Notes under the pieces: model-generated | What the model was told of the DNA's origin: nothing | Seen by the model: the letters and a program-made list of their open reading frames with translations, nothing else | Databases searched by the model: none | In this document: piece by piece, positions 14,997 through 28,505 of the stretch | Layout: each line of letters opens with the position of its first letter | How positions within the stretch are numbered: the first letter of the stretch is position 1 | Made by a program: the position numbers and the translations under genes | Assembly (NCBI GenBank): GCA_963762015.1 | Contig: CAVXJL010000013.1 | Coordinates: 27,709-91,708 of the forward strand | From: an uncultured Actinomycetota bacterium | GTDB taxonomy: Bacteria > Actinomycetota > UBA4738 > HRBIN12 | DNA length: 64,000 bases | Direction: 5' to 3'

Positions 14997-15029
14997 CGAC
15001 CCGTCCGTCCGTGCGGCTGCCGACGAGAC

Positions 15030-15515
<486 letters not shown>

Positions 15516-15519
15516 CCGC

Positions 15520-15933
15520 ATGGACAACATCACGATCCACTCCAGCTTCCTGCCGCACAACGACCCGGAGGCCTCCTTGGCCTTCTTCCGTGACGTCCTC
15601 GGCTTCGAGGTCCGTATGGACGTCGGATACGAGGGGATGCGCTGGATCACGGTCGGCCCCCCCGATCAGCCGGGTACGAACATCGTCCTCTACCCGCCGT
15701 CCGCCACACCCGGCATCACCGAGGAGGAGACGCGCACCATCGCCGAGATGATGGCCAAGGGCACGTTCGCCAGTCTCCTGCTGGCCACTCCGGATCTGGA
15801 CGCCACATTCGAACAGGTGCAATCCACCGAGGCGGAGATCGTGCAGGAGCCGACCGACCAGCCGTACGGCGTTCGCGACTGCGCTCTCCGCGATCCCGCG
15901 GGCAACATGATCCGCATCCAGGAGCGATCCTGA
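15520..15933 (+). CDS. VOC family protein (glyoxalase/bleomycin-resistance/dioxygenase fold)
   Basis: Paired beta-alpha-beta-beta-beta modules; FFRDVLGFEV...RWITVGP...NIVLY and ...AGNMIRIQE; 137 aa. Confidence 0.8.
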   Translation: MDNITIHSSFLPHNDPEASLAFFRDVLGFEVRMDVGYEGMRWITVGPPDQPGTNIVLYPPSATPGITEEETRTIAEMMAKGTFASLLLATPDLDATFEQVQSTEAEIVQEPTDQPYGVRDCALRDPAGNMIRIQERS

Positions 15934-15957
15934 TCCGCACGGGGGAGGTGGTTCGAG

Positions 15958-16443
15958 ATGGCTGAGAAGAAAACCGCGAAGAAGACCACACGGACGTCCG
16001 GGAAGCGCACCAGCGCGAGCACGTCCGGGACATTCACCGCCGACGAACGGGCCGCGATGAAGGCTCGGGCCCAAGAGCAGAAGGCGGAAGCGCGCGCGAA
16101 CAAGAACAGGGCCGACGGGGAACGCGACCTGCTCGCGGCGATCGCCGCGATGACGGGACGCGATCGCGCCATGGCCAAGCGGGTCCACGCGATCGTCACC
16201 GCTGTCGCGCCGGACCTCTGGCCGAAGACCTGGTACGGGATGCCCGCGTACGCCAAGGACGGCAAGGTCATCTGCTTCTTCCAGGACGCGGCGAAGTTCA
16301 AAGCGAGGTACGCGACGTTCGGCTTCAGCGACGAGGCGAACCTCGACCAAGGCGCGCTGTGGCCAACGTCCTTCGCACTGAAGGACTTGACCGCTGCCGA
16401 AGAGAAGAAGATCGCCGCGCTCGTGAAGAAGGCCGTGCGCTGA
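15958..16443 (+). CDS. DUF1801 (YdhG-like) domain protein with Lys-rich N-terminal tail
   Basis: C-terminal part ([32 protein letters not shown]) resembles YdhG/DUF1801. N-terminus is KKT-rich low complexity; 161 aa. Confidence 0.5.
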
Positions 16444-16445
16444 CT

Positions 16446-18803
<2,358 letters not shown>

Positions 18804-18865
18804 AGGAGGCCACTCGCAAAGCCACCGTGAGACGAGTTCGCTCAGCCGTCCGGCTCGTCGTGCCC

Positions 18866-18893
18866 CTTCCCGATAACGTACATTATGTCACCT
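18866..18893. other. dif-like XerC/XerD chromosome-dimer resolution site
   Basis: CTTCCCGATAA-CGTACA-TTATGTCACCT. The core ATAACGTACATTATGTCA matches E. coli dif ATAATGTATATTATGTTA at 15/18 positions with the 11-6-11 arm/spacer layout. xerD lies ~30 kb away. Confidence 0.55.
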
Positions 18894-19169
18894 TGTCGGG
18901 AAGAGGGCCTCATGACTCTCGCGGACTCTCCCCTCCCTCCCGATCCAAGCTCGGGTCTTGGGCGGTCCCGGGGCGTTCTTGCTTCGGGGCAACGCGGATG
19001 CAAAGCTCGCCTTCGGCCCTGGAGAGAGGGACGTTCGGCGGAAGGCTTCCTTCTTTCGACCGATGTTCCCCTCCCCCGGCACTCGTAGGGTGTGTGGGTC
19101 AACCGGCCGATGGATGGACCGACGCGGATGACCGACCCGCCATGCGTGAGGCGGGACCCAGGAGGGGAC

Positions 19170-20804
19170 ATGAAGAGAGCGAAGCACCGGTCCGGCGCCC
19201 GACGGGGACTCGTTCTCGGGTCGATCATCGTGGCGATGCTGGCAGTGGGACAGGCCGGCATGGTGTTCGCGGGTGCCGTTCCACCGGTCGACTCCCCCGA
19301 GCCTGCGCCGGTAGACAACGCGCAGCCGTCGGTCGGAGTCGTGGAGCCGGTCATCCTCGATACCCGGTCCTCGAACGACGACGACGCCTCCGCCGTGGAG
19401 ACCAGCGACCAACTCCCCCCTGAGATCACCGACCCTGTCCCTCCAGAGGTCACCGATCAACTCTCCGAAGAGGTCACGTCCGTCGATCCGGAAGCCGGCT
19501 GTGGGGAGGACGTCGATCCGGTGACGTGCGACCCGGATGAGACCGACGCCGGCGAGAACATCCCGGTCCACGTCACCGAGGCGGTAGACGAGCCGACCCC
19601 GCCCGATCTGCAGGTCTCGAAGACCTCCGATGCGGACGGGATCCTCCAGGACGGCGACGACTTGCTGTACACGATCATCGTGACCAACGCGGGCGACGAG
19701 GAAGCGACGGGCGTCGAGCTCGTCGACATCCTGCCGCCGGGTGCGCAGGGCGTCACCTTCCCACCGTTCCCGACACTCGCCGGCAAGGCATGCATCGCCA
19801 CCAGCTCCGTGATGCCCGGCGGCGTGCCCCACGCGGAGGTCCGCTGTGGCCGGGTGTCCCTCGATCCGGGCGAGTCGGCAACCGTCACGGTGCGGGTCAT
19901 CATCGACAGCACCTATTGCGGTTCGATCACCAACGTCGTGGACGTCGAAGGCAGGAACGAGCCCGGGGTCAACGTCGGGGATGACAACCACGCCGAAACC
20001 ACAGACGAGGTCGCGTGCGTGCCGAGGATCCGGTTGTCCAAGGGCGGACCTTCGTTCGCGCATGTGGGCGACACGATCACGTATGTGTTGACCGCGAGGA
20101 ACAACGGAAGTGCCCGACTCACGAACATCGACCTTTCCGATCCGGGATGCGACTCGTCCCCCACGCTCGTCGACGACGGGAACGGCAACTCGACCTTGGG
20201 GGTCGGCGAGGTTTGGCGCTTCGAGTGCGACCACACCGTCACATCCTCGGACGGCAACGTCGTCCACAACGTGGCGACGGTCACCGGCGATCATGGGGGT
20301 GAAACCGTCAGGGACACGAACGCCCATGACGTCGACGTGATCCACCCGAGCATCGATCTCGAGAAGTCCGCGACCCCGACCTCCGGTCCGGCCGGCACGC
20401 TCATCGTTTACACCTACATCGTCACGAACACCGGAGACACCCCCCTGTTCGACATCTCCGTGTCCGACGACAAGCTGGGGGACGTGGGTGTCATCGCGAC
20501 GCTCGCGGTAGGAGCGACGGCGGAGCTCACCTCCCAGATCACGCTGGGCTCCTCCCCCATCACCAACGTCGCCACGGCCACGGGCGAGGACCGTCTCGGG
20601 AGAGCTGTCGATGACACGGACTCTGCCTCGGTCACCGTGGTGGCCGGCACAGGCGGTGGAGCCGGCGGCGATGGGACCGGCAGCGGCGGGAGCCCGTTCA
20701 CCGGATCGGACACGGACGGGCTCGCTGCGTGGATCGTGATCCTCGCCGCGGTGGGGTCGGTGCTCCTCCTCACCTCGCGAAGGCGATCGCAAGCGCGCGC
20801 CTAG
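19170..20804 (+). CDS. DUF11-repeat cell-surface protein 1 (signal peptide; C-terminal [ST]PFTG sorting-signal-like motif + TM + basic tail)
   Basis: ATG behind GGAGGGG RBS. Signal peptide MKRAKHRSGARRGLVLGSIIVAMLAVGQA. Repeated ...TYTI.VTNTG... DUF11 modules. C-terminus GSPFTGSDTDGLAAWIVILAAVGSVLLLTSRRRSQARA. Confidence 0.75.
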   Translation: MKRAKHRSGARRGLVLGSIIVAMLAVGQAGMVFAGAVPPVDSPEPAPVDNAQPSVGVVEPVILDTRSSNDDDASAVETSDQLPPEITDPVPPEVTDQLSEEVTSVDPEAGCGEDVDPVTCDPDETDAGENIPVHVTEAVDEPTPPDLQVSKTSDADGILQDGDDLLYTIIVTNAGDEEATGVELVDILPPGAQGVTFPPFPTLAGKACIATSSVMPGGVPHAEVRCGRVSLDPGESATVTVRVIIDSTYCGSITNVVDVEGRNEPGVNVGDDNHAETTDEVACVPRIRLSKGGPSFAHVGDTITYVLTARNNGSARLTNIDLSDPGCDSSPTLVDDGNGNSTLGVGEVWRFECDHTVTSSDGNVVHNVATVTGDHGGETVRDTNAHDVDVIHPSIDLEKSATPTSGPAGTLIVYTYIVTNTGDTPLFDISVSDDKLGDVGVIATLAVGATAELTSQITLGSSPITNVATATGEDRLGRAVDDTDSASVTVVAGTGGGAGGDGTGSGGSPFTGSDTDGLAAWIVILAAVGSVLLLTSRRRSQARA

Positions 20805-20832
20805 CGGGTCCTCACGGACGACCTGAGCACGG

Positions 20833-20862
20833 AGCGGGCCCCTCGGAGGCCCGTTTCGATCT
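20833..20862 (+). terminator. hairpin terminator after DUF11 gene 1
   Basis: CGGGCC-cctcgga-GGCCCG followed by TTTCG. Confidence 0.4.
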
Positions 20863-20888
20863 CTTCTCCCCACCAGCAGGTTTCTGTC

Positions 20889-20917
20889 TTGTGCATTCGG
20901 GGAACTTGCTTCACAAT
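20889..20917 (+). promoter_or_regulatory. putative promoter of DUF11 gene 2 (-35 TTGTGC, 17-bp spacer, -10 CACAAT)
   Basis: The same -35/17/-10 arrangement recurs upstream of gene 3 (23704-23732). Confidence 0.45.
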
Positions 20918-21090
20918 CGGGCTCCTCCGAACGGACTACGCACGTCGGTCCGGATGGAGTCTGGCCATTCGCCCGATGGTCTCCCCCGGGTGAGGAGGAT
21001 ACCGTCGGGCGGAAGGACCTCGTTCTACGCCGTAGGACGTGGGCCCCGTTGATAGTCGATCGACACATGAGATCACCTGGGGAGGTAGAG
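20918..21090 (+). promoter_or_regulatory. conserved ~170-nt 5' leader of DUF11 gene 2 (candidate cis-regulatory RNA)
   Basis: Blocks CCGAACGGACTAC, GGCCATTCGCCCGATGgTcTCCCCCGGGtGAGG, CCGTAGGaCGtGGGCC and GGGGAGGTA (RBS). All are shared with the gene-3 leader and partly with gene 1. Confidence 0.45.
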
Positions 21091-23532
21091 ATGAGAACCA
21101 GAACCGACATGGGACGGGGCCGGCGCGGCAAGCGAGGGCTCGCGTCCTTCGTATCGTTCCTGCTCCTGTTCGCGTTCGCGCTCGGAAGCAGTTCATTGGT
21201 CGCGCTGGCGGACAACGGCGGCGCGAAGGGGAACAAGAAGGCTGTCTCGAGTGATGAGACGCTACCCGTGGCCGAAGCACCGGCCGACGAAGCCCCCGCA
21301 GAGGAAGCTCCGGCCGAGGAAGCTCCCGTAGAAGAGGCTCCGGCCGAGGAAGCTCCGGCCGAGGAAGCTTCCGTAGAAGACACCGACGCGGGAGCCTCCA
21401 CCGAGGGCACCACGCCCACGGGCCGAGCCGCACCCAAGGCCAGCCAGTTCAAGACCGCGAGCGCAGGCCGCGGCGCCGGGATCCTGAGCCACGGTGGACT
21501 CCACGGCGGTGATGTCTCGCTCGACTTCGTCGCAGCCGGACCGTTCACCTACGACCACAGCACCGGCCTGGGCACGCACCCCCAGTTCGGATACGACAAC
21601 CGCACCATCAGTAAGACGAACGGGGTCGTGGAGTCGCTGGAAAGCGGCGACTTCGAGTGCGGTGATCTCGTGACCTTCTTCGTGCAGGTCGTGATCGCTG
21701 AGGATGCAGAAGGCAGCGGCACCGTCGAGCTCGACTTGTCGTTCGGCGCCGAGACCACGGGCCAGCCCGGCCTCGGCTTCGACAACATCGTCAGCTACGG
21801 GATCAACACCCCCGACGACGGCAATGTCGGGAACGTGGGCGACAACGTCGTGACCGCCAGCCCGCCCAACGGGGCCATCGAGACCTCGGGCTACGACGAA
21901 TTGAAGGCGACCCTCACGGTGACCAACCTCGCCCCCGGTGAGACCGCCATCGTTCGAGTGACGGTCCACCTCGAATGCGAGGTCGGGGCCAGCCCGACCG
22001 GCAACATCCTCAATTCGATCGAGGCTGCCCGCGCGGACGGCGAGAGGATCTCCGTCGGACAGCAGACCGTTCCGATGAAGCAGGTCGGTGGGATCGACGC
22101 AGCGCCCGCGATCGATGTCACCAAGGACTGCCCCGCGGCGGTGGGTGCCGGCGAGGAGATCACGTACGAGATCACGGTGACGAACACCGGGAACGTGGAA
22201 CTGACCAACATCACGGTCGTCGACGACATCATCGGCGATCTATCGGGTGAGTTCCCGGACACCCTCGCCGTGGGATCCGATCCCGTCACGGTGGAGGTGC
22301 AGTACACGCCGGCGCCGGCGGACGGCGACCCCGTCACGAACACGGTCACCGCGACCGGCGACTGGGACGCTGGCGAGACCAGCGATTCCGTGTCGGACAC
22401 CGCCGAGTGCACCACGGACATCACCCACGAGCCCGGGATCCTGGTCGTCAAGGAATGCCCAGAGTCGGTGCCGTTCGGTGAGGACGTGACCTTCACGATC
22501 ACCGTCACGAACACCGGCAACGAGGCCCTCGAGAACGTCCTCGTGACGGACGAGCTCCTCGGTGGGGACATCACCGCGGACTTCGACTTCGCGGATCCGT
22601 TCCCGGTGGGCGGCGAAGAGTCAGCCGAGTTCACGTACACGCCGGGACCGAACGAGGACCCGGTGGAGAACTCCGTCACCGCTTCGGGCGACGGTGTGGA
22701 CTCCGAGGTCACCGCGACCTCTACGGACGACTGTGACACCGACGTCATCCACGCACCGGCGATCGAGGTCACCAAGGCCTGTCCGGCTCTGGTGGCATCC
22801 GGTGAGGACGTGACCTTCACGATCACCGTCACGAACACCGGTAACGAGGACCTCGGGAACGTTTCCGTGACGGACGAGCTCCTCGGCGGGAACATCACCG
22901 ATGCCTTCGGATTCGGGGAGACGTTCGCGGCCGGAGCCGAGGTATCCGCCCAGTTCACCTACACACCAGGGGCGGACGAAGATCCCGTGGAGAACTCCGT
23001 CACCGCTTCGGGCGTCGGGGTGCACTCCGAGATCACGGTGACGTCTACGGACGTGTGTGTCACCGATGTCTCGAACCCGGCCATCCAGATCGTGAAGACG
23101 GTCAGCGAAGAGATCGTCCCCGTGGGAACCACGGTGACCTACACCTACGTCATCACGAACACCGGCGACGTGACGCTGTACGACATCAGTGTCGATGACG
23201 ACATCATGGGGCACATCGGGGACATCCCCGTCCTCGAGCCCGGGGTCTCCGTGACCCTCACGAAGGACTTCGTGGTGGGCGACGAACCCGTCCTCAATGT
23301 CGGCACGGCCGTGGGCGAGGACATCCTCGGCCGGGTCGTGAGCGACGACGACGACGCGTTCGTCAGTCCGATCGCCGGCGAGAACCCGCCGAACCCCCCG
23401 AACAACCCCCCGACGCCCTTCACGGGCTCGGACGCGGGCCGGCTCGGGCTCATCACCCTGATCCTGGCCGGGATCGGCGTGACCGTGGTCGCGTCGACCC
23501 GCAGGCGCCGGCCTGAGCGGGAGGCCGCATAA
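21091..23532 (+). CDS. DUF11-repeat cell-surface protein 2 (signal peptide, Ala/Glu/Pro-rich linker, DUF11 repeats, TPFTG sorting-signal-like C-terminus)
   Basis: ATG after GGGGAGGTAGAG. (AEEAP)n low-complexity stretch. Repeated ...VTFTITVTNTGNE... modules. C-terminus NPPNPPNNPPTPFTGSDAGRLGLITLILAGIGVTVVASTRRRRPEREAA. Confidence 0.8.
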   Translation: MRTRTDMGRGRRGKRGLASFVSFLLLFAFALGSSSLVALADNGGAKGNKKAVSSDETLPVAEAPADEAPAEEAPAEEAPVEEAPAEEAPAEEASVEDTDAGASTEGTTPTGRAAPKASQFKTASAGRGAGILSHGGLHGGDVSLDFVAAGPFTYDHSTGLGTHPQFGYDNRTISKTNGVVESLESGDFECGDLVTFFVQVVIAEDAEGSGTVELDLSFGAETTGQPGLGFDNIVSYGINTPDDGNVGNVGDNVVTASPPNGAIETSGYDELKATLTVTNLAPGETAIVRVTVHLECEVGASPTGNILNSIEAARADGERISVGQQTVPMKQVGGIDAAPAIDVTKDCPAAVGAGEEITYEITVTNTGNVELTNITVVDDIIGDLSGEFPDTLAVGSDPVTVEVQYTPAPADGDPVTNTVTATGDWDAGETSDSVSDTAECTTDITHEPGILVVKECPESVPFGEDVTFTITVTNTGNEALENVLVTDELLGGDITADFDFADPFPVGGEESAEFTYTPGPNEDPVENSVTASGDGVDSEVTATSTDDCDTDVIHAPAIEVTKACPALVASGEDVTFTITVTNTGNEDLGNVSVTDELLGGNITDAFGFGETFAAGAEVSAQFTYTPGADEDPVENSVTASGVGVHSEITVTSTDVCVTDVSNPAIQIVKTVSEEIVPVGTTVTYTYVITNTGDVTLYDISVDDDIMGHIGDIPVLEPGVSVTLTKDFVVGDEPVLNVGTAVGEDILGRVVSDDDDAFVSPIAGENPPNPPNNPPTPFTGSDAGRLGLITLILAGIGVTVVASTRRRRPEREAA

Positions 23533-23553
23533 ACACCCGAGAAGCGCGAGCAT

Positions 23554-23590
23554 GGGGCGGGGTCCGAAAGGGACCCCGCCCCTCCCGTTT
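23554..23590 (+). terminator. strong hairpin terminator after DUF11 gene 2
   Basis: GGGGCGGGGTCC-gaaa-GGACCCCGCCCC (12-bp stem, GNRA loop) followed by a T-containing tail. Confidence 0.55.
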
Positions 23591-23703
23591 CTCCCCCAAG
23601 AGACCCCACAGTGGTGGCGAAGGGGAACGCTCAGGCCTCCGTCCAAGCACGTCCACTCGATGGATCCGTCGATCCGTGCTCGTTTTCCACCAGATCTCTA
23701 GTA

Positions 23704-23732
23704 TTGCGCAATCCGGATACTTCCTCCACAAT
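23704..23732 (+). promoter_or_regulatory. putative promoter of DUF11 gene 3 (-35 TTGCGC, 17-bp spacer, -10 CACAAT)
   Basis: Same architecture as the gene-2 promoter. Confidence 0.45.
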
Positions 23733-23907
23733 CGATGTCACCCGAACGGACTACTTCGTCCGCCAGGAACAGTCGGGCCATTCGCCCGATGCTGTCCCCC
23801 GGGCGAGGGATATAGCGTTCGGTAGGCGGACCACGCTCTTCACCGTAGGGCGGGGGCCGCATCTATCGGTCAAGTGAAGCGCACCACACCAGTTGGGGAG
23901 GTACGGG
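23733..23907 (+). promoter_or_regulatory. conserved ~175-nt 5' leader of DUF11 gene 3 (candidate cis-regulatory RNA)
   Basis: Contains CCGAACGGACTAC, GGCCATTCGCCCGATGcTgTCCCCCGGGcGAGG, CCGTAGGgCGgGGGCC and GGGGAGGTA. Confidence 0.45.
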
Positions 23908-26900
23908 ATGGGAACCAGATCCAATGGGGGGCGTAGTCGCGGCACCAAGCGGGGACTCGCTTCGTTCGTATCGTTCGTTGTGCTGTTCGCGCTCGCGCTC
24001 GGACAGGGCAGCTCGTTGATCGCGTTGGCGGACGACGCCAGCCGCAGCACGGCACTTCCGTCGGCGCAGCCGACCGGTGCGGCTCCGTCCACCGACCAAG
24101 TCAGTGGCGACACAGGGACCTCGTCTGACGACGGGGCTTCCACGACGTCTCGGACAGCGCCCAAGGTCAGCCAGCGGAACACCGCAGCCGCTGGACGCAC
24201 CGGTGCGCTTGCGGCCCCCCCGAGCTCCGGGTTCGACGGCGGGGACATCAGCCTCGACTTCGTCGCGGCCGGTCCCTTCACGTACAACCACGACACGGGA
24301 GTCGGCGGCGCCTACAACAACCGTACGATCAGCAAGACGACGGGTGTCGTGGAGTCGCTGGAGGGCGGCGACTTCGAATGCGGTGACCTCGTGGTGTTCT
24401 TCACGCAGGTCGTCGTCGACAACGGCGCGACCGGCACTGGAAGCATCGACATCGACTACGCGTTCGGCGCGGAGACGACCGGCCAGCCGGGGATCGGCTT
24501 CGACGACATCGTGAGCGTCAGCGTGAACACCAGCGACTCGGGCAATGTTGGCCTGGAAGGCACCGAGACGGCCACGCTCATCGCCGAAGGCACCGGAACG
24601 ATCGGTGGCAGCGACGCGGTCACCGGCACCGTTCGGGTCACCGGGCTCAACGCCGGCGAGCACTTGATCGTCCGCACGGTCGTGCATCTCGGGTGCGATG
24701 TCGGCGCCTCTCCGACCGGCAACATCCAGAGTGCGGTTCCTGCCGCAAGGGTTGTCCTGCCGGAGGCGGACACGATCTCCGTCGGCAACCAGACGATCCC
24801 GTTCAAGAAGGTCGAGGACGTCGCGCAGCCGGGCATGAACGTCACCAAGACGTGTCCTGCGTTCTCTCAGGTCGGCGACGTCATCACCTACAGCATCTCG
24901 ATCCAGAACACGGGCAACGAGACACTCAACATCACGAGCGTCGTGGACACGGTGAACGGCCACAGTCCCGTGAACATCACGGCCTCGTTCCCGGCAACGG
25001 TCGCGGCCGGAGCCACGGTCACCAGGACCTACGAGTACACGGTGGTGGCCGCCGATCCGGATCCGCTGCCGAACTCGGTGACGGTGACGGCCAAGGGAGC
25101 CGTCTCGCAAGTGACGCTGACCGGATCCTCGTCCTGTGAGACCGACATCCTCAACCCCGACATCAAGGTCACCAAGACCTGCACGGACTTCGCGCAGGTC
25201 GGTGACGTGATCACCTACACGATCACGGTCGAGAACACCGGGGACGAGACCCTGAACGGCGTGACCGTGATGGACTCCTTGCTCGGGAACCTGTCGGGCT
25301 CCTACGACGACGTGTTCTCCCCAGGCGAAGAGGAATCGCACGACTTCACCTACACGGTCACCGAGAACAGCCCGGACCCGGTCCCGAACACGGTGACCGC
25401 CTCGGGCACGGGTGCCACCTCCAACGACACCGTGACCGACACGGCGTCGTGCTCCACCGACATCCTCAACCCCGACATCAAGGTCACGAAGACCTGCACG
25501 GACTTCGCGCAGGTCGGTGACGTGATCACCTACACGATCACCGTCACGAACACGGGTGATGAGGACTCTCGAGGGCATGACCGTCGATGACACGCTGCTC
25601 GGCGACCTCTCGGACGACTTCGCCGACACGTTGGCGGCCGGTGACTCGGAGTCCCACGACTTCGACTACCTGGTCACCGAGGACAGCCCGGACCCGGTCC
25701 CGAACTCGGTGACCGCGACGGGCACGGGCGTGACCTCGGAAGAGATCGTGGATGACACGGCGCGGATGCTCGACGGAGATCCTCAACCCCGACATCGATG
25801 TCACGAAGACCTGCACGGACTTCGCGCAGGTCGGTGACACGATCACCTACACGATCACCGTCACCAACACGGGTGATGAGGATCTCGAGGGCATCACCGT
25901 CGATGACACGCTGCTCGGCGACCTCTCGGACGACTTCGCCGACACCTTGGCGGCCGGTGACTCGGAGTCCCACGACTTCGACTACCTGGTCACCGAGGAC
26001 AGCCCGGACCCGGTCCCGAACTCGGTGACCGCGACGGGCACGGGCGTGACCTCGGAAGAGGTCGTGGATGACACGGCCGGATGCTCGACGGAGATCCTCA
26101 ACCCCGACATCGATGTCACGAAGACCTGCACGGACTTCGCGCAGGTCGGTGACACGATCACCTACACGATCACCGTCACCAACACGGGTGATGAGGATCT
26201 CGAGGGCATCACCGTCGATGACACGCTGCTCGGCGACCTCTCGGACGACTTCGCCGACACCTTGGCGGCCGGTGACTCGGAGTCCCACGACTTCGACTAC
26301 CTGGTCACCGAGGACAGCCCGGACCCGGTCCCGAACTCGGTGACCGCGACGGGCACGGGCGTGACCTCGGAAGAGGTCGTGGATGACACGGCCGGATGCT
26401 CGACGGAGATCCTCAACCCCGACATCGATGTCACGAAGACCTGCACGGACTTCGCGCAGGTCGGTGACACGATCACCTACACGATCACCGTCACCAACAC
26501 GGGTGATGAGGATCTCGAGGGCATCACCGTCGATGACACGCTGCTCGGCGACCTCTCGGACGACTTCGCCGACACCTTGGCGGCCGGTGACTCGGAGTCC
26601 CACGACTTCGACTACCTGGTCACCGAGGACAGCCCGGACCCGGTCCCGAACTCGGTGACCGCGACGGGCACGGGCGTGACCTCGGAAGAGGTCGTGGATG
26701 ACACGGCCGGATGCTCGACGGAGATCCTCAACCCCGACATCACGGTGACCAAGTCGTGCCCCGAGTCGGCGACGGTGGGTGACACGATCACCTACACGAT
26801 CACCGTGACCAACACGGGTGATGAGGATCTCGAGGGCATCACGGTCGAGGACTCGTTGCTCGGCGACCTCTCAGACTCCTTCGCGGACACGCTCGATGTG

Positions 26901-27836
26901 GAGGAATCGGAGTCGCACGACTTCACCTACACGGTTACCGCCCAGAGCCCGGACCCGGTCCCGAACACCGTGACCGCTTCGGGCACGGGAGTGACCTCGG
27001 AAGACACCGTGACCAACACCACGTCGTGCTCCACGGACGTGCTCTTCCCGGCGATCAACATCGTCAAGGACGGGCCGGCCCTCGTGCACCGGGGCGACAC
27101 GATCACCTACACGTTCGAGGTCACCAACCCCGGTGAGGTCGAGCTGTTCGACGTCGAGCTCTCCGACCCGATCTGCGACGAAGGCACGATCGAGCCCGGT
27201 GAGGACGTGGACTCCAGCCTGGCGGTCGGCGAGGTGTGGCACTTCACGTGCCTGCACCTGGTCACCGACGAGGACCCGGACCCGATCCCGAACACCGGGA
27301 CCGTCCGTGGCGACACGGAGGAGGGCGAGGGTGGCGAAGAGGTCGAGGACAGCGATGACCACCTGGTGGACATCATCAACCCCGGCATCGACATCCTGAA
27401 GACCGTCGACGAGGAGATCGTCCCGATCGGTACCACCGTGACGTTTACCTACGTCGTTACCAACACCGGCGACACCACGCTGTATGAGATCAGCGTCGAC
27501 GACGACATCCTGGGTCACATCGGGGACATCGCCGTCCTCGAGCCGGGGGACTCCGCCACGCTGACCAAGGACTTCGTGGTTGGTGACGAGATCGTCACCA
27601 ACGTCGGCACCGCGACGGGCGAGGACGTCCTCGGTCGCTCGGTGAGCGCCGATGACGACGCCACCGTCACTCCGATCGCCGGTGAGAACCCGCCGAACCC
27701 GCCGAACAACCCCCCGACGCCCTTCACGGGCTCGGACGCGGGCCGCCTGGGCCTCATCACGATCGTCCTGTTCGGGATCGGCGTGACCGTGGTCGCGTCG
27801 ACCCGCAGGCGCCGGCCGGAGCGTGAGGCCGCGTAA
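23908..27836 (+). pseudogene. DUF11-repeat cell-surface protein 3 (~1300 aa if corrected); two +1 frameshifts at ~25568 and ~25757 inside a tandem-repeat array
   Basis: Signal peptide and N-terminal domain homologous to gene 2. Reading continues in frame 2 (25556-25837) and frame 0 (25752-27836). The C-terminal ~150 aa and TPFTG+TM+RRRR tail are almost identical to gene 2. Confidence 0.7.
25132..27021 (+). repeat. tandem array of ~6 x 315-bp units (each one 105-aa DUF11 module); 3-4 central copies essentially identical
   Basis: Unit CSTEILNPDIDVTKTCTDFAQVGDTITYTITVTNTGDEDLEGITVDDTLLGDLSDDFADTLAAGDSESHDFDYLVTEDSPDPVPNSVTATGTGVTSEEVVDDTAG repeats with period 315 bp (e.g. 26077, 26392, 26707). 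Flanking copies are diverged. Confidence 0.85.
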
Positions 27837-27853
27837 CGGGAAGCACAGCGAAA

Positions 27854-27900
27854 GGAAAGGGGGCGGGATCCCAACCGGGATCCCGCCCCTTTCCTTCTCT
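27854..27900 (+). terminator. hairpin terminator after DUF11 gene 3
   Basis: GGAAAGGGGGCGGGATCCC-aacc-GGGATCCCGCCCCTTTCC followed by TTCTCTT. Confidence 0.5.
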
Positions 27901-27915
27901 TACCGGGTCAGACCC

Positions 27916-28368
27916 TCATCCGACGAAGATCATCGTGACCCACAGGAACCCATCCTGGGCGTAAAGCCCGACCCCGACCCGGCGGTAGCCGCGTCCGAGG
28001 ATGTTGTCTCGGTGCGCGTCGCTCCTCATGAATGCGTCGAACAGCCCGCGCATGCTTCCTCCGGCCCCGACATTCTCCCCCGCCACGCTCCAGGACACGA
28101 ACGTGAGCCTGGACCCCAGGGAAGCCGTGTGGAAGATCCGACCGGCGTTGGCCATCTGCCTGCTGTGCTCGTTCGCCATCTTCCGGAGTCGCCATCCCGG
28201 ATCCAGGCTCACCGCTCCACGCGTACTCCGAGCCGAGTTCACCCACCCGAGCATGTCGAGACGGGGCGTCCAGGTGGCATGTGCGCTGGGCGCGACTGCT
28301 CCCAGCACCACGGAGAGGGCGAGGGTGAGCCCCAAGACCTTGATGGTCTTGACCAGACCTCGTCTCAT
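27916..28368 (-). CDS. secreted CAP-domain (SCP/PR-1/YkwD-like) protein, paralog 1
   Basis: ATG behind AAGGAGG RBS. Signal peptide MRRGLVKTIKVLGLTLALSVVLGAVAPSAHA. CAP motifs ...HS.QMAN.GRIFH... and HRDNIL...GVG. Confidence 0.7.
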   Translation of the reverse strand: MRRGLVKTIKVLGLTLALSVVLGAVAPSAHATWTPRLDMLGWVNSARSTRGAVSLDPGWRLRKMANEHSRQMANAGRIFHTASLGSRLTFVSWSVAGENVGAGGSMRGLFDAFMRSDAHRDNILGRGYRRVGVGLYAQDGFLWVTMIFVG

Positions 28369-28505
28369 CGCTGCGCCTCCTTGCCGCGGGCGACCTCCCT
28401 CGGCCGCCTCTGTCACCGAACATCGGCATCAGGCGGCCCGGCTTGAGACAGAACTGGTCAAAGATGACTAGGAGCACGTACCTGTGAAGAGGTAGCGGGA
28501 GCGCG

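Follow-up and report, generated by a model that had tools for sequence, protein, structure and literature searches.

The window analysed here, a 64-kb stretch of DNA from an uncultured actinobacterium, contains three consecutive open reading frames on the plus strand (19092-20804, 21049-23532 and 23893-27836, by ORF calling over the whole window) that encode paralogous secreted repeat proteins (Table 1). As starts we chose ATG codons that are backed by a ribosome binding site and kept in orthologues (19170 for gene 1 and 21091 for gene 2): the first two proteins are therefore 544 and 813 amino acids long, and not 570 and 827 as in the initial annotation, while its estimate of about 1300 amino acids for the third holds (1308 after frame correction). 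All three proteins start with a signal peptide, recognised by inspection from a basic n-region, a hydrophobic core of 15-20 residues and a cleavage-type site (VFA↓G or ALA↓D). In gene 1, this is followed by an acidic/Pro-rich spacer, three CLIPPER-type modules, a Gly-rich linker and an SPFTG signal; in gene 2 by an (EAPA)n spacer, an N-terminal beta-sandwich domain that is the probable distal 'tip' domain, four CLIPPER_2 modules, a Pro-rich linker and a TPFTG signal; and in gene 3 by an N-domain (24199-24852), nine CLIPPER_2 modules and again a TPFTG signal.

Table 1. Positions of genes, signals, repeats and non-coding elements at the locus (window coordinates)
Feature	Position	Strand	Details
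dif-like XerC/D-type site, 11-6-11	18867..18894		TTCCCGATAA-CGTACA-TTATGTCACCTT
Gene 1 non-coding leader (type 1)	18977..19169	+	conserved; alignment of 19 orthologous upstream regions
Gene 1 (type 1)	19170..20804	+	544 aa; ORF, Pfam DUF7507 2.8e-33 and DUF11 2.1e-20, start and RBS conserved
Gene 1 sorting signal (putative)	20691..20804	+	SPFTG 20691-20705, hydrophobic segment 20718-20777, RRRSQARA
Terminator hairpin after gene 1	20830..20858	+	-28.7 kcal/mol, z -2.95
Gene 2 promoter-like sequence and conserved leader	20887..21090	+	TTGTGC-17-CACAAT; two-hairpin core 20961-21007
Gene 2 (type 2a)	21091..23532	+	813 aa; ORF, Pfam, homologue alignment
15-nt tandem repeat in gene 2, coding for the (E-A-P-A-E) spacer	21274..21369	+	6.4 copies
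Gene 2 N-terminal domain	21442..22125	+	aa 118-345; no Pfam model
Gene 2 CLIPPER_2 modules (four)	22093..23373	+	aa 335-761; phmmer module envelopes
Gene 2 sorting signal (putative)	23413..23532	+	TPFTG 23413-23427, hydrophobic segment 23443-23499, RRRRPEREAA; nearly invariant in ~110 homologues
Terminator hairpin after gene 2	23554..23582	+	-42.4 kcal/mol, z -5.8
Gene 3 promoter-like sequence and conserved leader	23702..23907	+	TTGCGC-17-CACAAT; two-hairpin core 23774-23820
Gene 3 (type 2b)	23908..27836	+	1308 aa once C25566 and G25762 are removed
315-bp tandem array in gene 3 (105-aa module)	25140..27011	+	5.9 copies
Gene 3 sorting signal (putative)	27717..27836	+	TPFTG 27717-27731, hydrophobic segment 27747-27803, RRRRPEREAA
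16-bp hairpin between gene 3 and the CAP-domain gene	27857..27892		-40.4 kcal/mol, z -6.6; terminator-like on both strands

Two single-base insertions, a C at position 25566 and a G at position 25762, break gene 3 into three frames; both lie inside unit 2 of its 315-bp tandem array, and their deletion yields a single ORF from the ATG at 23908. The insertions bring stops in frame and lie outside homopolymers, so that gene 3 could be a recently inactivated pseudogene rather than an intact gene with assembly errors. We regard this as possible but rather doubtful: in the shifted frame, about 2 kb of downstream sequence have no stop, a GC3 of 0.91 and a perfect sorting signal, and the indels adjoin three array units (25770-26714) that are 100% identical to one another, a region error-prone in polishing. 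Moreover, the orthologues at two related loci (L002 and L004) are intact, and the orthologue at L080, from a metagenome assembly, is split as well. Unequal recombination within the array would change the number of modules.

The initial annotation had described the three genes as a tandem of paralogous DUF11-repeat surface proteins, and both the ORFs and the domain matches support this. All three proteins match PF24346 (DUF7507; 103-247 bits, cut-off 27, E 3e-33 to 2e-74), PF01345 (DUF11; 49-134 bits, above the gathering score of 24.6, E 1e-12 to 4e-39) and NCBIfam TIGR01451 (68-161 bits, cut-off 24). DUF11 and DUF7507, renamed CLIPPER and CLIPPER_2 in 2025, make up the stalks of fibrillar adhesins and are stabilised by isopeptide bonds (Costa et al. 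2025, PMC12617251); thus, the proteins are typical of a class already described. The best identity to an entry of the protein collection is 82%, the source genome itself not being among the entries. Structure prediction of one 112-amino-acid module (pLDDT 96.3) returned an Ig-like sandwich with E-set proteins as structural neighbours (Foldseek), and on this model the module fold is an Ig-like (CnaA-like, E-set) beta-sandwich. The CLIPPER structure PDB 9IFR was absent from the top Foldseek matches of the modelled module, and genes 1 and 2, used as sequence queries against the PDB, gave no match.

Three residues, K15, D48 and N86, are invariant across 39 diverse modules, and in 30 full-length homologues K, D and N residues are likewise invariant, with one set per module. 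Their spacing is comparable to that of Lys72/Asp112/Asn152 in a DUF7507 example, and we read them as the isopeptide triad, matching the Lys/Asp/Asn triad reported for both DUF11 and DUF7507 (PMC12617251). An intramolecular, Asp-assisted Lys-Asn isopeptide bond and a Cys-x14-Cys disulfide probably lock each module.

The C-termini read SPFTG-GLAAWIVILAAVGSVLLLTS-RRR in gene 1, TPFTG-LGLITLILAGIGVTVVAST-RRRR in gene 2 and TPFTG-LGLITIVLFGIGVTVVAST-RRRR in gene 3. The hydrophobic stretch has 19-20 residues and is followed by RRR or RRRR, both lying at most ~35 residues from the motif, as expected of sortase substrates. This is the LPXTG-type tripartite end with Ser or Thr at position 1 that had been noted before: pentapeptide, hydrophobic segment and Arg tail are found in all three proteins, and P-x-T-G is kept with S or T instead of L at P4. 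The tail of gene 1 reaches 15.3 bits with the LPXTG_anchor model TIGR01167 (cut-off 15.9); for genes 2 and 3, neither this nor any other curated sorting-signal model gives a match at cut-off.

Among the 120 homologues listed, 108, from uncultured Actinomycetota, have TPFTG, four TAFTG and one each VAFTG, LPFTG and TPFSG; the remaining five are frameshifted or truncated. In 'Actinomycetes' MAGs, the motif of the homologues is [T/S/V/L]AFTG, at an equal distance from the hydrophobic segment and basic tail, and more distant homologues have LPETG, LPNTG, LPKTG, LPATG or IPETG at the same position. All three window proteins have Pro at P3; Ala at this position, which is a trait of class E signals (LAXTG), occurs in paralogues and orthologues of related genomes (L008, L020, L026 and L032), and in three of these (L008, L026 and L032) Pro and Ala interchange inside a single genome. 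The consensus of the lineage would be [T/S/N/V/L]-[P/A]-F-T-G, indicating that P4 need not be Leu and that Phe at P2 is fixed. Across ~0.9 Mb of DNA from relatives, a survey biased to this locus, the tail was seen on CLIPPER proteins only. We found no description of a PFTG motif in connection with sortases in the literature; the proteins themselves are of a known kind, and the new details are the variant of the signal and the conserved upstream leader.

From these comparisons, the most plausible reading of the tail is a sortase signal of the LPXTG type with a variant pentapeptide. A simple type I membrane anchor, with PFTG kept for structure (for example as a hinge) and not for cleavage, would fit the missing TIGR01167 matches of genes 2 and 3, the conservation of a stretch that goes past the pentapeptide (TPFTGSDAGRLG) and the lack of a sortase in the window and at 80 related loci. 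It is an unlikely explanation: types 1 and 2 have the identical PFTG despite unrelated linkers (Gly-rich and Pro-rich, respectively) and diverged hydrophobic segments, and the motif takes the exact position of the canonical LPxTG of more distant homologues. Moreover, wall-anchored proteins typically have a Pro-rich or Gly-rich wall-spanning linker in front of the motif, as is the case here.

Even less probable is that the tail serves a dedicated protease or transpeptidase other than a sortase, like the exosortases, archaeosortases and rhombosortases that act on -CTERM signals. The non-canonical P4 and the fixed Phe would agree with such a system, archaeal CLIPPER proteins use archaeosortase signals (PMC12617251) and the tails have a faint similarity to PEP-CTERM, VPDSG-CTERM and PVV-CTERM models (E 0.025-0.05). 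However, these matches score far under the cut-off and cover only the generic hydrophobic stretch, relatives show a gradual transition of the motif to LAxTG and LPxTG, and no multi-pass exosortase-like gene is conserved beside the cluster, where the neighbours are Lnt-Ppm, CAP and gcvP.

A sortase gene was not found nearby. As the initial annotation had stated, there is no sortase gene in the window: a regular-expression scan of all six frames for the catalytic TLxTC motif with upstream His and downstream Arg found none, and a Pfam scan of 30 window ORFs gave no match to PF04203. The same motif scan gave no sortase within 10 kb on either side of the cluster at 80 related loci; its sole candidate (L010, 14681-15277) is an FHA/OdhI protein. 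A sortase acting on the tail would most likely be the housekeeping class E enzyme of Actinobacteria or a derivative of it. Class E sortases accept LAXTG, as in the chaplins, the substrates of SrtE1 of S. coelicolor (PMC5148588), and the interchange of Pro and Ala at P3 within single genomes therefore fits enzymes of this class; SpaB of C. diphtheriae bears LAFTG (PMC12445094). Thr or Ser at P4, however, is at odds with SrtE1, for which a non-polar S4 pocket was described (PMC5148588).

The description of the last ~150 amino acids of genes 2 and 3 as nearly identical was overstated: identity is 94% over the last 50 amino acids and 75% over the preceding 110, and 81-84% at the DNA level. The gene conversion suggested for this region does not agree with the comparison to orthologues: in the last module, gene 2 shares 86-89% identity with its L002 and L004 orthologues and 75% with gene 3, and gene 3 shares 87-88% with its own orthologues. 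Each gene is thus closer to its orthologue elsewhere than to its paralogue, indicating old paralogy, with the last module and the signal under purifying selection. The only stretch where conversion could have occurred is a short tract of linker and motif (the last ~30 codons).

At least 20 related MAG species have the same cluster at the same place: a type-1 gene and one or two type-2 genes, followed by CAP and gcvPB/PA. To call it the main accessory locus of the window was therefore only half right, as it is a conserved feature of the lineage with varying module number and not a recent island.

The three genes are likely to be transcribed separately, as had been proposed: each is followed by a strong hairpin and genes 2 and 3 are preceded by promoter-like sequences, while a promoter in the leader of gene 1 is a guess from conservation. 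The last hairpin lies between gene 3 and a CAP-domain gene on the minus strand (27916-28416), which is convergent with gene 3. The leader of gene 1 contains CCGATG-N-CCCCC (19060-19077) and CGTAGGGTGTGTG (19084-19096), followed by the ribosome binding site AGGAGG; the window has exactly three copies of each piece, one ahead of every gene of the trio, which suggests common regulation. A covariance model matches the leaders of gene 2 (63.2 bits, E 3e-10) and gene 3 (66.7 bits, E 7e-11), and the leader of these two genes is probably structured. The 47-nt core alone gives a consistent fold; RNAalifold on the MAFFT alignment of the leader returns a weak structure (-5.2 kcal/mol) and single-sequence folds of the whole leaders barely beat shuffles (z -1.2 and -2.5). 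The leader is not a small ORF, as 1-nt indels between orthologues break every frame, and does not match a known RNA, as Rfam gave no hit at gathering threshold over the window and nothing relevant at E<=1 over 18800-24000.

Upstream of gene 1, the locus adjoins a dif-like site, as the initial annotation had said. The ATAA-N6-TTAT pattern occurs only here in the 64 kb, even with one mismatch allowed, and, with only one such site in the window, an integrative element exploiting Xer (IMEX, an island with a dif-like site on either side) is not supported. At 28 related loci, the site precedes the type-1 gene by about 290 nt; its arms are conserved and its 6-bp centre varies. Its position near the cumulative GC-skew maximum (~10-16 kb) and a switch in gene orientation is consistent with dif, but this is weak evidence from window data only. 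It resembles the dif sites of XerC/XerD, such as GGTGCGCATAA-TGTATA-TTATGTTAAAT of E. coli, in its 11-6-11 layout, ATAA/TTAT inner arms, single copy in the window and apparent location at a skew and orientation switch. It differs in the constant presence of one adhesin gene at this distance; to our knowledge, constant adjacency to one particular adhesin gene is not a property of dif.

We propose, with a probability of roughly 0.7, that the three proteins are Sec-exported fibrillar adhesins with CLIPPER stalks that are anchored to the wall by a sortase via the [S/T]PFTG tail. The gene structure, domain families, fold, motif conservation and positional equivalence of the motif to LPXTG are observed, and we infer sortase cleavage, isopeptide bonds, adhesion function and regulation. 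The host would be a member of an uncultured monoderm Actinomycetota lineage. The distal region, which in genes 2 and 3 is the N-terminal beta-sandwich domain and in gene 1 the acidic spacer, would be carried on a rod of three, four or nine CLIPPER/CLIPPER_2 Ig-like modules, and the Pro-rich or Gly-rich linker would span the wall, followed by [S/T]PFTG, a hydrophobic stop-transfer segment and the Arg-rich tail. After export, this tail would retain the protein in the membrane until a sortase cuts between Thr and Gly and transfers it to the peptidoglycan cross-bridge. It is very unlikely that the proteins are instead the tip, shaft and base pilins of a sortase-polymerised pilus: a class C sortase is absent within 10 kb on either side of the cluster at every locus scanned, each gene has its own terminator, there are only two genes in related genomes, and stalks of 4-9 tandem modules typify fibrillar adhesins, not pilins (PMC12617251).

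More tentatively, [T/S/N/V/L]-[P/A]-F-T-G may reflect a distinct sortase specificity across a class-level lineage of soil Actinomycetota, in which Leu at P4 has given way to an obligatory Phe at P2, and the tail-bearing adhesin genes may form a small regulon under a new structured 5' leader, kept beside dif. Annotation pipelines would label these proteins 'DUF11/DUF7507 repeat protein' and miss the probable wall anchoring, because the tail is under the cut-off of the LPXTG model. If x[P/A]FTG were recognised as a lineage-specific signal, the surface proteome of a widespread uncultured group of soil actinobacteria would become predictable; it would also indicate a sortase whose P4/P2 specificity is altered, which has some interest for sortase-mediated ligation. 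As proteins, the adhesins go little beyond the 2025 CLIPPER survey, and the conserved leader and fixed adjacency to dif are cheap leads on the regulation and maintenance of adhesin loci.

With the described CLIPPER adhesins (PDB 9IFR, PMC12617251), the proteins have in common the signal peptide, tandem CnaA-like Ig modules, Lys/Asp/Asn triad, long stalk and C-terminal sorting domain, as well as the extra disulfide that is frequent in Actinomycetota. They differ in that the modules are dominated by CLIPPER_2, the N-terminal domain has no Pfam model and the sorting pentapeptide is non-canonical. The substrates of class E sortases (PMC5148588, PMC12445094) are similar in their actinobacterial host, tripartite signal, Phe at P2 (as in LAFTG) and, in the wider family, Pro or Ala at P3, and here, too, no sortase gene adjoins the substrate genes; in contrast to these, P4 in the lineage is Thr, Ser or Asn rather than Leu, P3 is Pro in this genome and Phe at P2 is invariant instead of free. 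A small or polar P4 in place of Leu, with P-x-T-G kept, is also found in the (S/P)PXTG substrates of SrtB of Clostridioides difficile, for which P4 was argued to set specificity (PMC5118464); SrtB, however, is a class B enzyme of a Firmicute, its substrates have a variable P2, and its passenger proteins are unrelated to the adhesins described here.

All three genes encode typical CLIPPER fibrillar adhesins. Their products match DUF7507 (PF24346, CLIPPER_2; E 3e-33 to 2e-74) and DUF11 (PF01345, CLIPPER; E 1e-12 to 4e-39) of Pfam as well as NCBIfam TIGR01451, confirming the DUF11-repeat proteins of the initial annotation; the names CLIPPER and CLIPPER_2 come from precomputed annotations on related contigs. 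Both are CnaA-like Ig domains; they build fibrillar adhesin stalks, have an intramolecular Lys-Asn isopeptide bond whose formation an adjacent Asp presumably catalyses (crystal structure 9IFR), and in Actinomycetota commonly an extra disulfide (PMC12617251). The invariant polar residues among 39 diverse modules are K15, D48 and N86; in 30 full-length homologues, too, K, D and N residues reappear once in every module. Cysteines stand at positions 2 and 17 of each 105-aa module. A single module was modelled as an Ig-like sandwich (pLDDT 96.3) with E-set structural neighbours.

The most likely starts are the ATGs at 19170, 21091 and 23908, each preceded by a ribosome binding site and kept in orthologues, giving proteins of 544, 813 and 1308 aa for genes 1 (type 1), 2 (type 2a) and 3 (type 2b), respectively; the reading frames are supported by a GC3 of 0.84-0.91. 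By inspection only, the three N-termini (basic stretch, hydrophobic core, VFA-G or ALA-D site) are read as Sec signal peptides. The frame of gene 3 breaks inside unit 2 of its 315-bp tandem array: alignment with unit 3 reveals two one-base insertions. At 25566 an additional C turns GGATCTC into GGACTCTC, in overlap with a GATC, and at 25762 an additional G turns GGCCGG into GGCGCGG; deletion of both restores a single open gene of 1308 codons. The insertion pattern looks like an assembly or polishing error, and the two frameshifts are probably assembly errors; very recent inactivation of the gene is less likely. The affected unit adjoins three identical units, and the gene 3 orthologue of locus L080 (a metagenome assembly) is likewise split. 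The 15-nt repeat of gene 2 encodes an (E-A-P-A-E)n spacer between signal peptide and N-terminal domain, also present in the homologue consensus.

Features of the adhesin locus and its surroundings
Feature	Position	Strand	Remarks
AraC-family regulator, glyoxalase, UvrA paralogue	14997-18803		between Lnt-Ppm fusion gene and dif-like site
UvrA paralogue (UvrA2-like)	15966-18803		
dif-like 28-mer	18867-18894		TTCCCGATAA-CGTACA-TTATGTCACCTT; XerC/D 11-6-11 layout
Gene 1 (type-1) leader	18977-19169		motif pieces 19060-19077, 19084-19096
Gene 1 ORF	19092-20804	+	ORF call
Gene 2 leader region	20887-21090		two-hairpin core 20961-21007
Gene 2 ORF	21049-23532	+	ORF call
15-nt tandem repeat, gene 2	21274-21369	+	6.4 copies
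Gene 3 leader region	23702-23907		two-hairpin core 23774-23820
Gene 3 ORF, three pieces in three frames	23893-25590, 25556-25837, 25752-27836	+	ORF call
315-bp tandem array, gene 3	25140-27011	+	5.9 copies, 91% matches
CAP/SCP (YkwD-like) domain protein	27916-28416	-	small, secreted

Genes 2 and 3 have an N-terminal domain of ~225 aa in common, which matched no Pfam model and which we assume to be the distal, ligand-facing part. It was modelled as a beta-sandwich with a pLDDT of 65, the poorly predicted part being its most conserved 35-residue loop. Peptide patterns from the domain found relatives in Bacteroidota, Planctomycetota and Methanosarcinales and it is thus a widespread module.

The cluster (type-1 gene, one or two type-2 genes, convergent CAP-domain gene, gcvPB/gcvPA) is shared by at least 20 MAG species; the best identity to a window protein in the protein collection was 82%. 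In the window, L079 and L080, the CAP/SCP gene converges with the last adhesin gene on a common hairpin terminator. Upstream, the Lnt-Ppm gene directly borders the dif/adhesin locus in L079 and L080, while the window and L002 have the AraC/glyoxalase/UvrA insertion, hence the variable segment lies left of dif. The gene conversion that the initial annotation had proposed for genes 2 and 3 is not supported: across the last module gene 2 is closer to its L002/L004 orthologues (86-89% identity) than to gene 3 (75%), and gene 3 shares 87-88% identity with the orthologues of its own type. Greater similarity within the genome than to orthologues is confined to the last 50 aa (94% between the two genes); as the linker of gene 2 also matches the 2b type, conversion may have affected a tract of a few dozen codons. 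Orthologous 2b-type ORFs differ in module number, their stop-to-stop length running from 937 to 1305 codons; together with the three identical units of the array, this fits repeat expansion and contraction.

The dif-like site is the sole ATAA-N6-TTAT of the window and lies near the cumulative GC-skew maximum and the switch to almost exclusively minus-strand genes. In 28 related loci it stands ~290 nt 5' of the type-1 gene (for example at 9259 in L002, 7407 in L079, 8476 in L020 and 4597 in L031), and these include distant loci with proteins only ~35% identical; the 6 bp in the centre vary from locus to locus between conserved arms. An IMEX-type (Xer-integrated) island is not supported: the window has no second dif-like site. 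In locus L025, labelled Planctomycetaceae, adhesin homologues with xAFTG occur together with this dif-like site of actinobacterial type, and the locus may therefore be mis-binned actinobacterial DNA; scans of L029 and L033 (labelled Planctomycetaceae / Fimbriiglobus) found neither.

Downstream of each adhesin gene lies a strong hairpin (-28.7, -42.4 and -40.4 kcal/mol for genes 1, 2 and 3; 0/200 shuffles fold as well) and upstream of it a conserved non-coding region, in agreement with the independent transcription suggested initially. Ahead of every type-2 gene stands a promoter-like TTGCGC-17-CACAAT and, after it, a leader of ~165-200 nt, found also upstream of the type-2 genes of L001-L019, L024, L032 and L080. 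Its invariant blocks are CCGAACGGACTAC, GGCCRTTCGCCCGATG, GTCCCCC, GGACCAC and CCGTAGG (30 copies aligned); one-base indels exclude a coding function, and an Rfam search of the leader returned no match. The 47-nt core forms two adjacent hairpins in most copies, with pairing in 81.7% of cells compared to at most 61.5% with partners slid. Covariation is seen at one pair (G-C in 10, C-G in 7 sequences), probably reflecting about two independent events only. A covariance model of the core, run on the 0.9 Mb of related loci, gave 31 matches at E<1e-5, all upstream of type-2 genes, and further weak matches at the corresponding place of distant loci. In the RNAalifold model a C-run pairs with the Shine-Dalgarno GGGGAGG, a pairing that would fit translational control; the leader may represent a novel cis-acting regulatory RNA that perhaps hides the Shine-Dalgarno sequence. 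The type-1 leader differs, but has two pieces in common with the type-2 leaders, CCGATG-N-CCCCC and CGTAGGGYGKGGG: these occur exactly three times in the 64-kb window, one copy ahead of each of the three adhesin genes, and this suggests that the genes are regulated together.

All three proteins end as initially described, in [S/T]PFTG, a hydrophobic segment and arginines: gene 1 has a Gly-rich linker, SPFTG, 20 hydrophobic residues and RRR, genes 2 and 3 the linker NPPNPPNNPP, TPFTG, 19 hydrophobic residues and RRRR. Among the best 120 homologues listed, from uncultured Actinomycetota, 108 have TPFTG, four TAFTG and one each VAFTG, LPFTG and TPFSG (the other five are frameshifted or truncated). 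PFTG is kept in both types despite unrelated linkers and diverged hydrophobic segments. At the same position, homologues from 'Actinomycetes' MAGs have [T/S/V/L]AFTG and more distant ones LPETG, LPNTG, LPKTG, LPATG or IPETG; P and A alternate between paralogues within single genomes. Given this conservation, context independence and positional equivalence, the tail is best read as a sortase signal, although the curated LPXTG model (TIGR01167) scores gene 1 at 15.3 bits, under its cut-off of 15.9, and does not match genes 2 and 3. No sortase-like ORF is present in the window, as already noted, or, for 80 related loci, in the 10 kb on either side of the cluster. In Actinobacteria the housekeeping sortase gene usually lies apart from the genes of its substrates, and this absence nearby is therefore weak evidence. 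We estimate a probability of about 0.7 that the three proteins are sortase-anchored, by a putative enzyme; the remainder is divided among three unlikely alternatives, namely simple membrane anchoring, processing by some other system of unknown kind, and assembly into pili.

The interest of the locus lies in this signal and two side observations. The lineage consensus is [T/S/N/V/L]-[P/A]-F-T-G, with Phe fixed and the first position (P4) free; our literature search found no paper describing it. Read as a sortase signal, it is a variant specific to this lineage rather than a new principle, in light of known sortase motifs: actinobacterial class E sortases accept LAXTG (PMC5148588), with A at P3, where the consensus allows P or A; SpaB of C. 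diphtheriae carries LAFTG (PMC12445094), with the same Phe before Thr-Gly; and SrtB of C. difficile, whose specificity is argued to be set by P4, accepts (S/P)PXTG (PMC5118464), with a non-Leu P4 as in SPFTG and TPFTG of the window.
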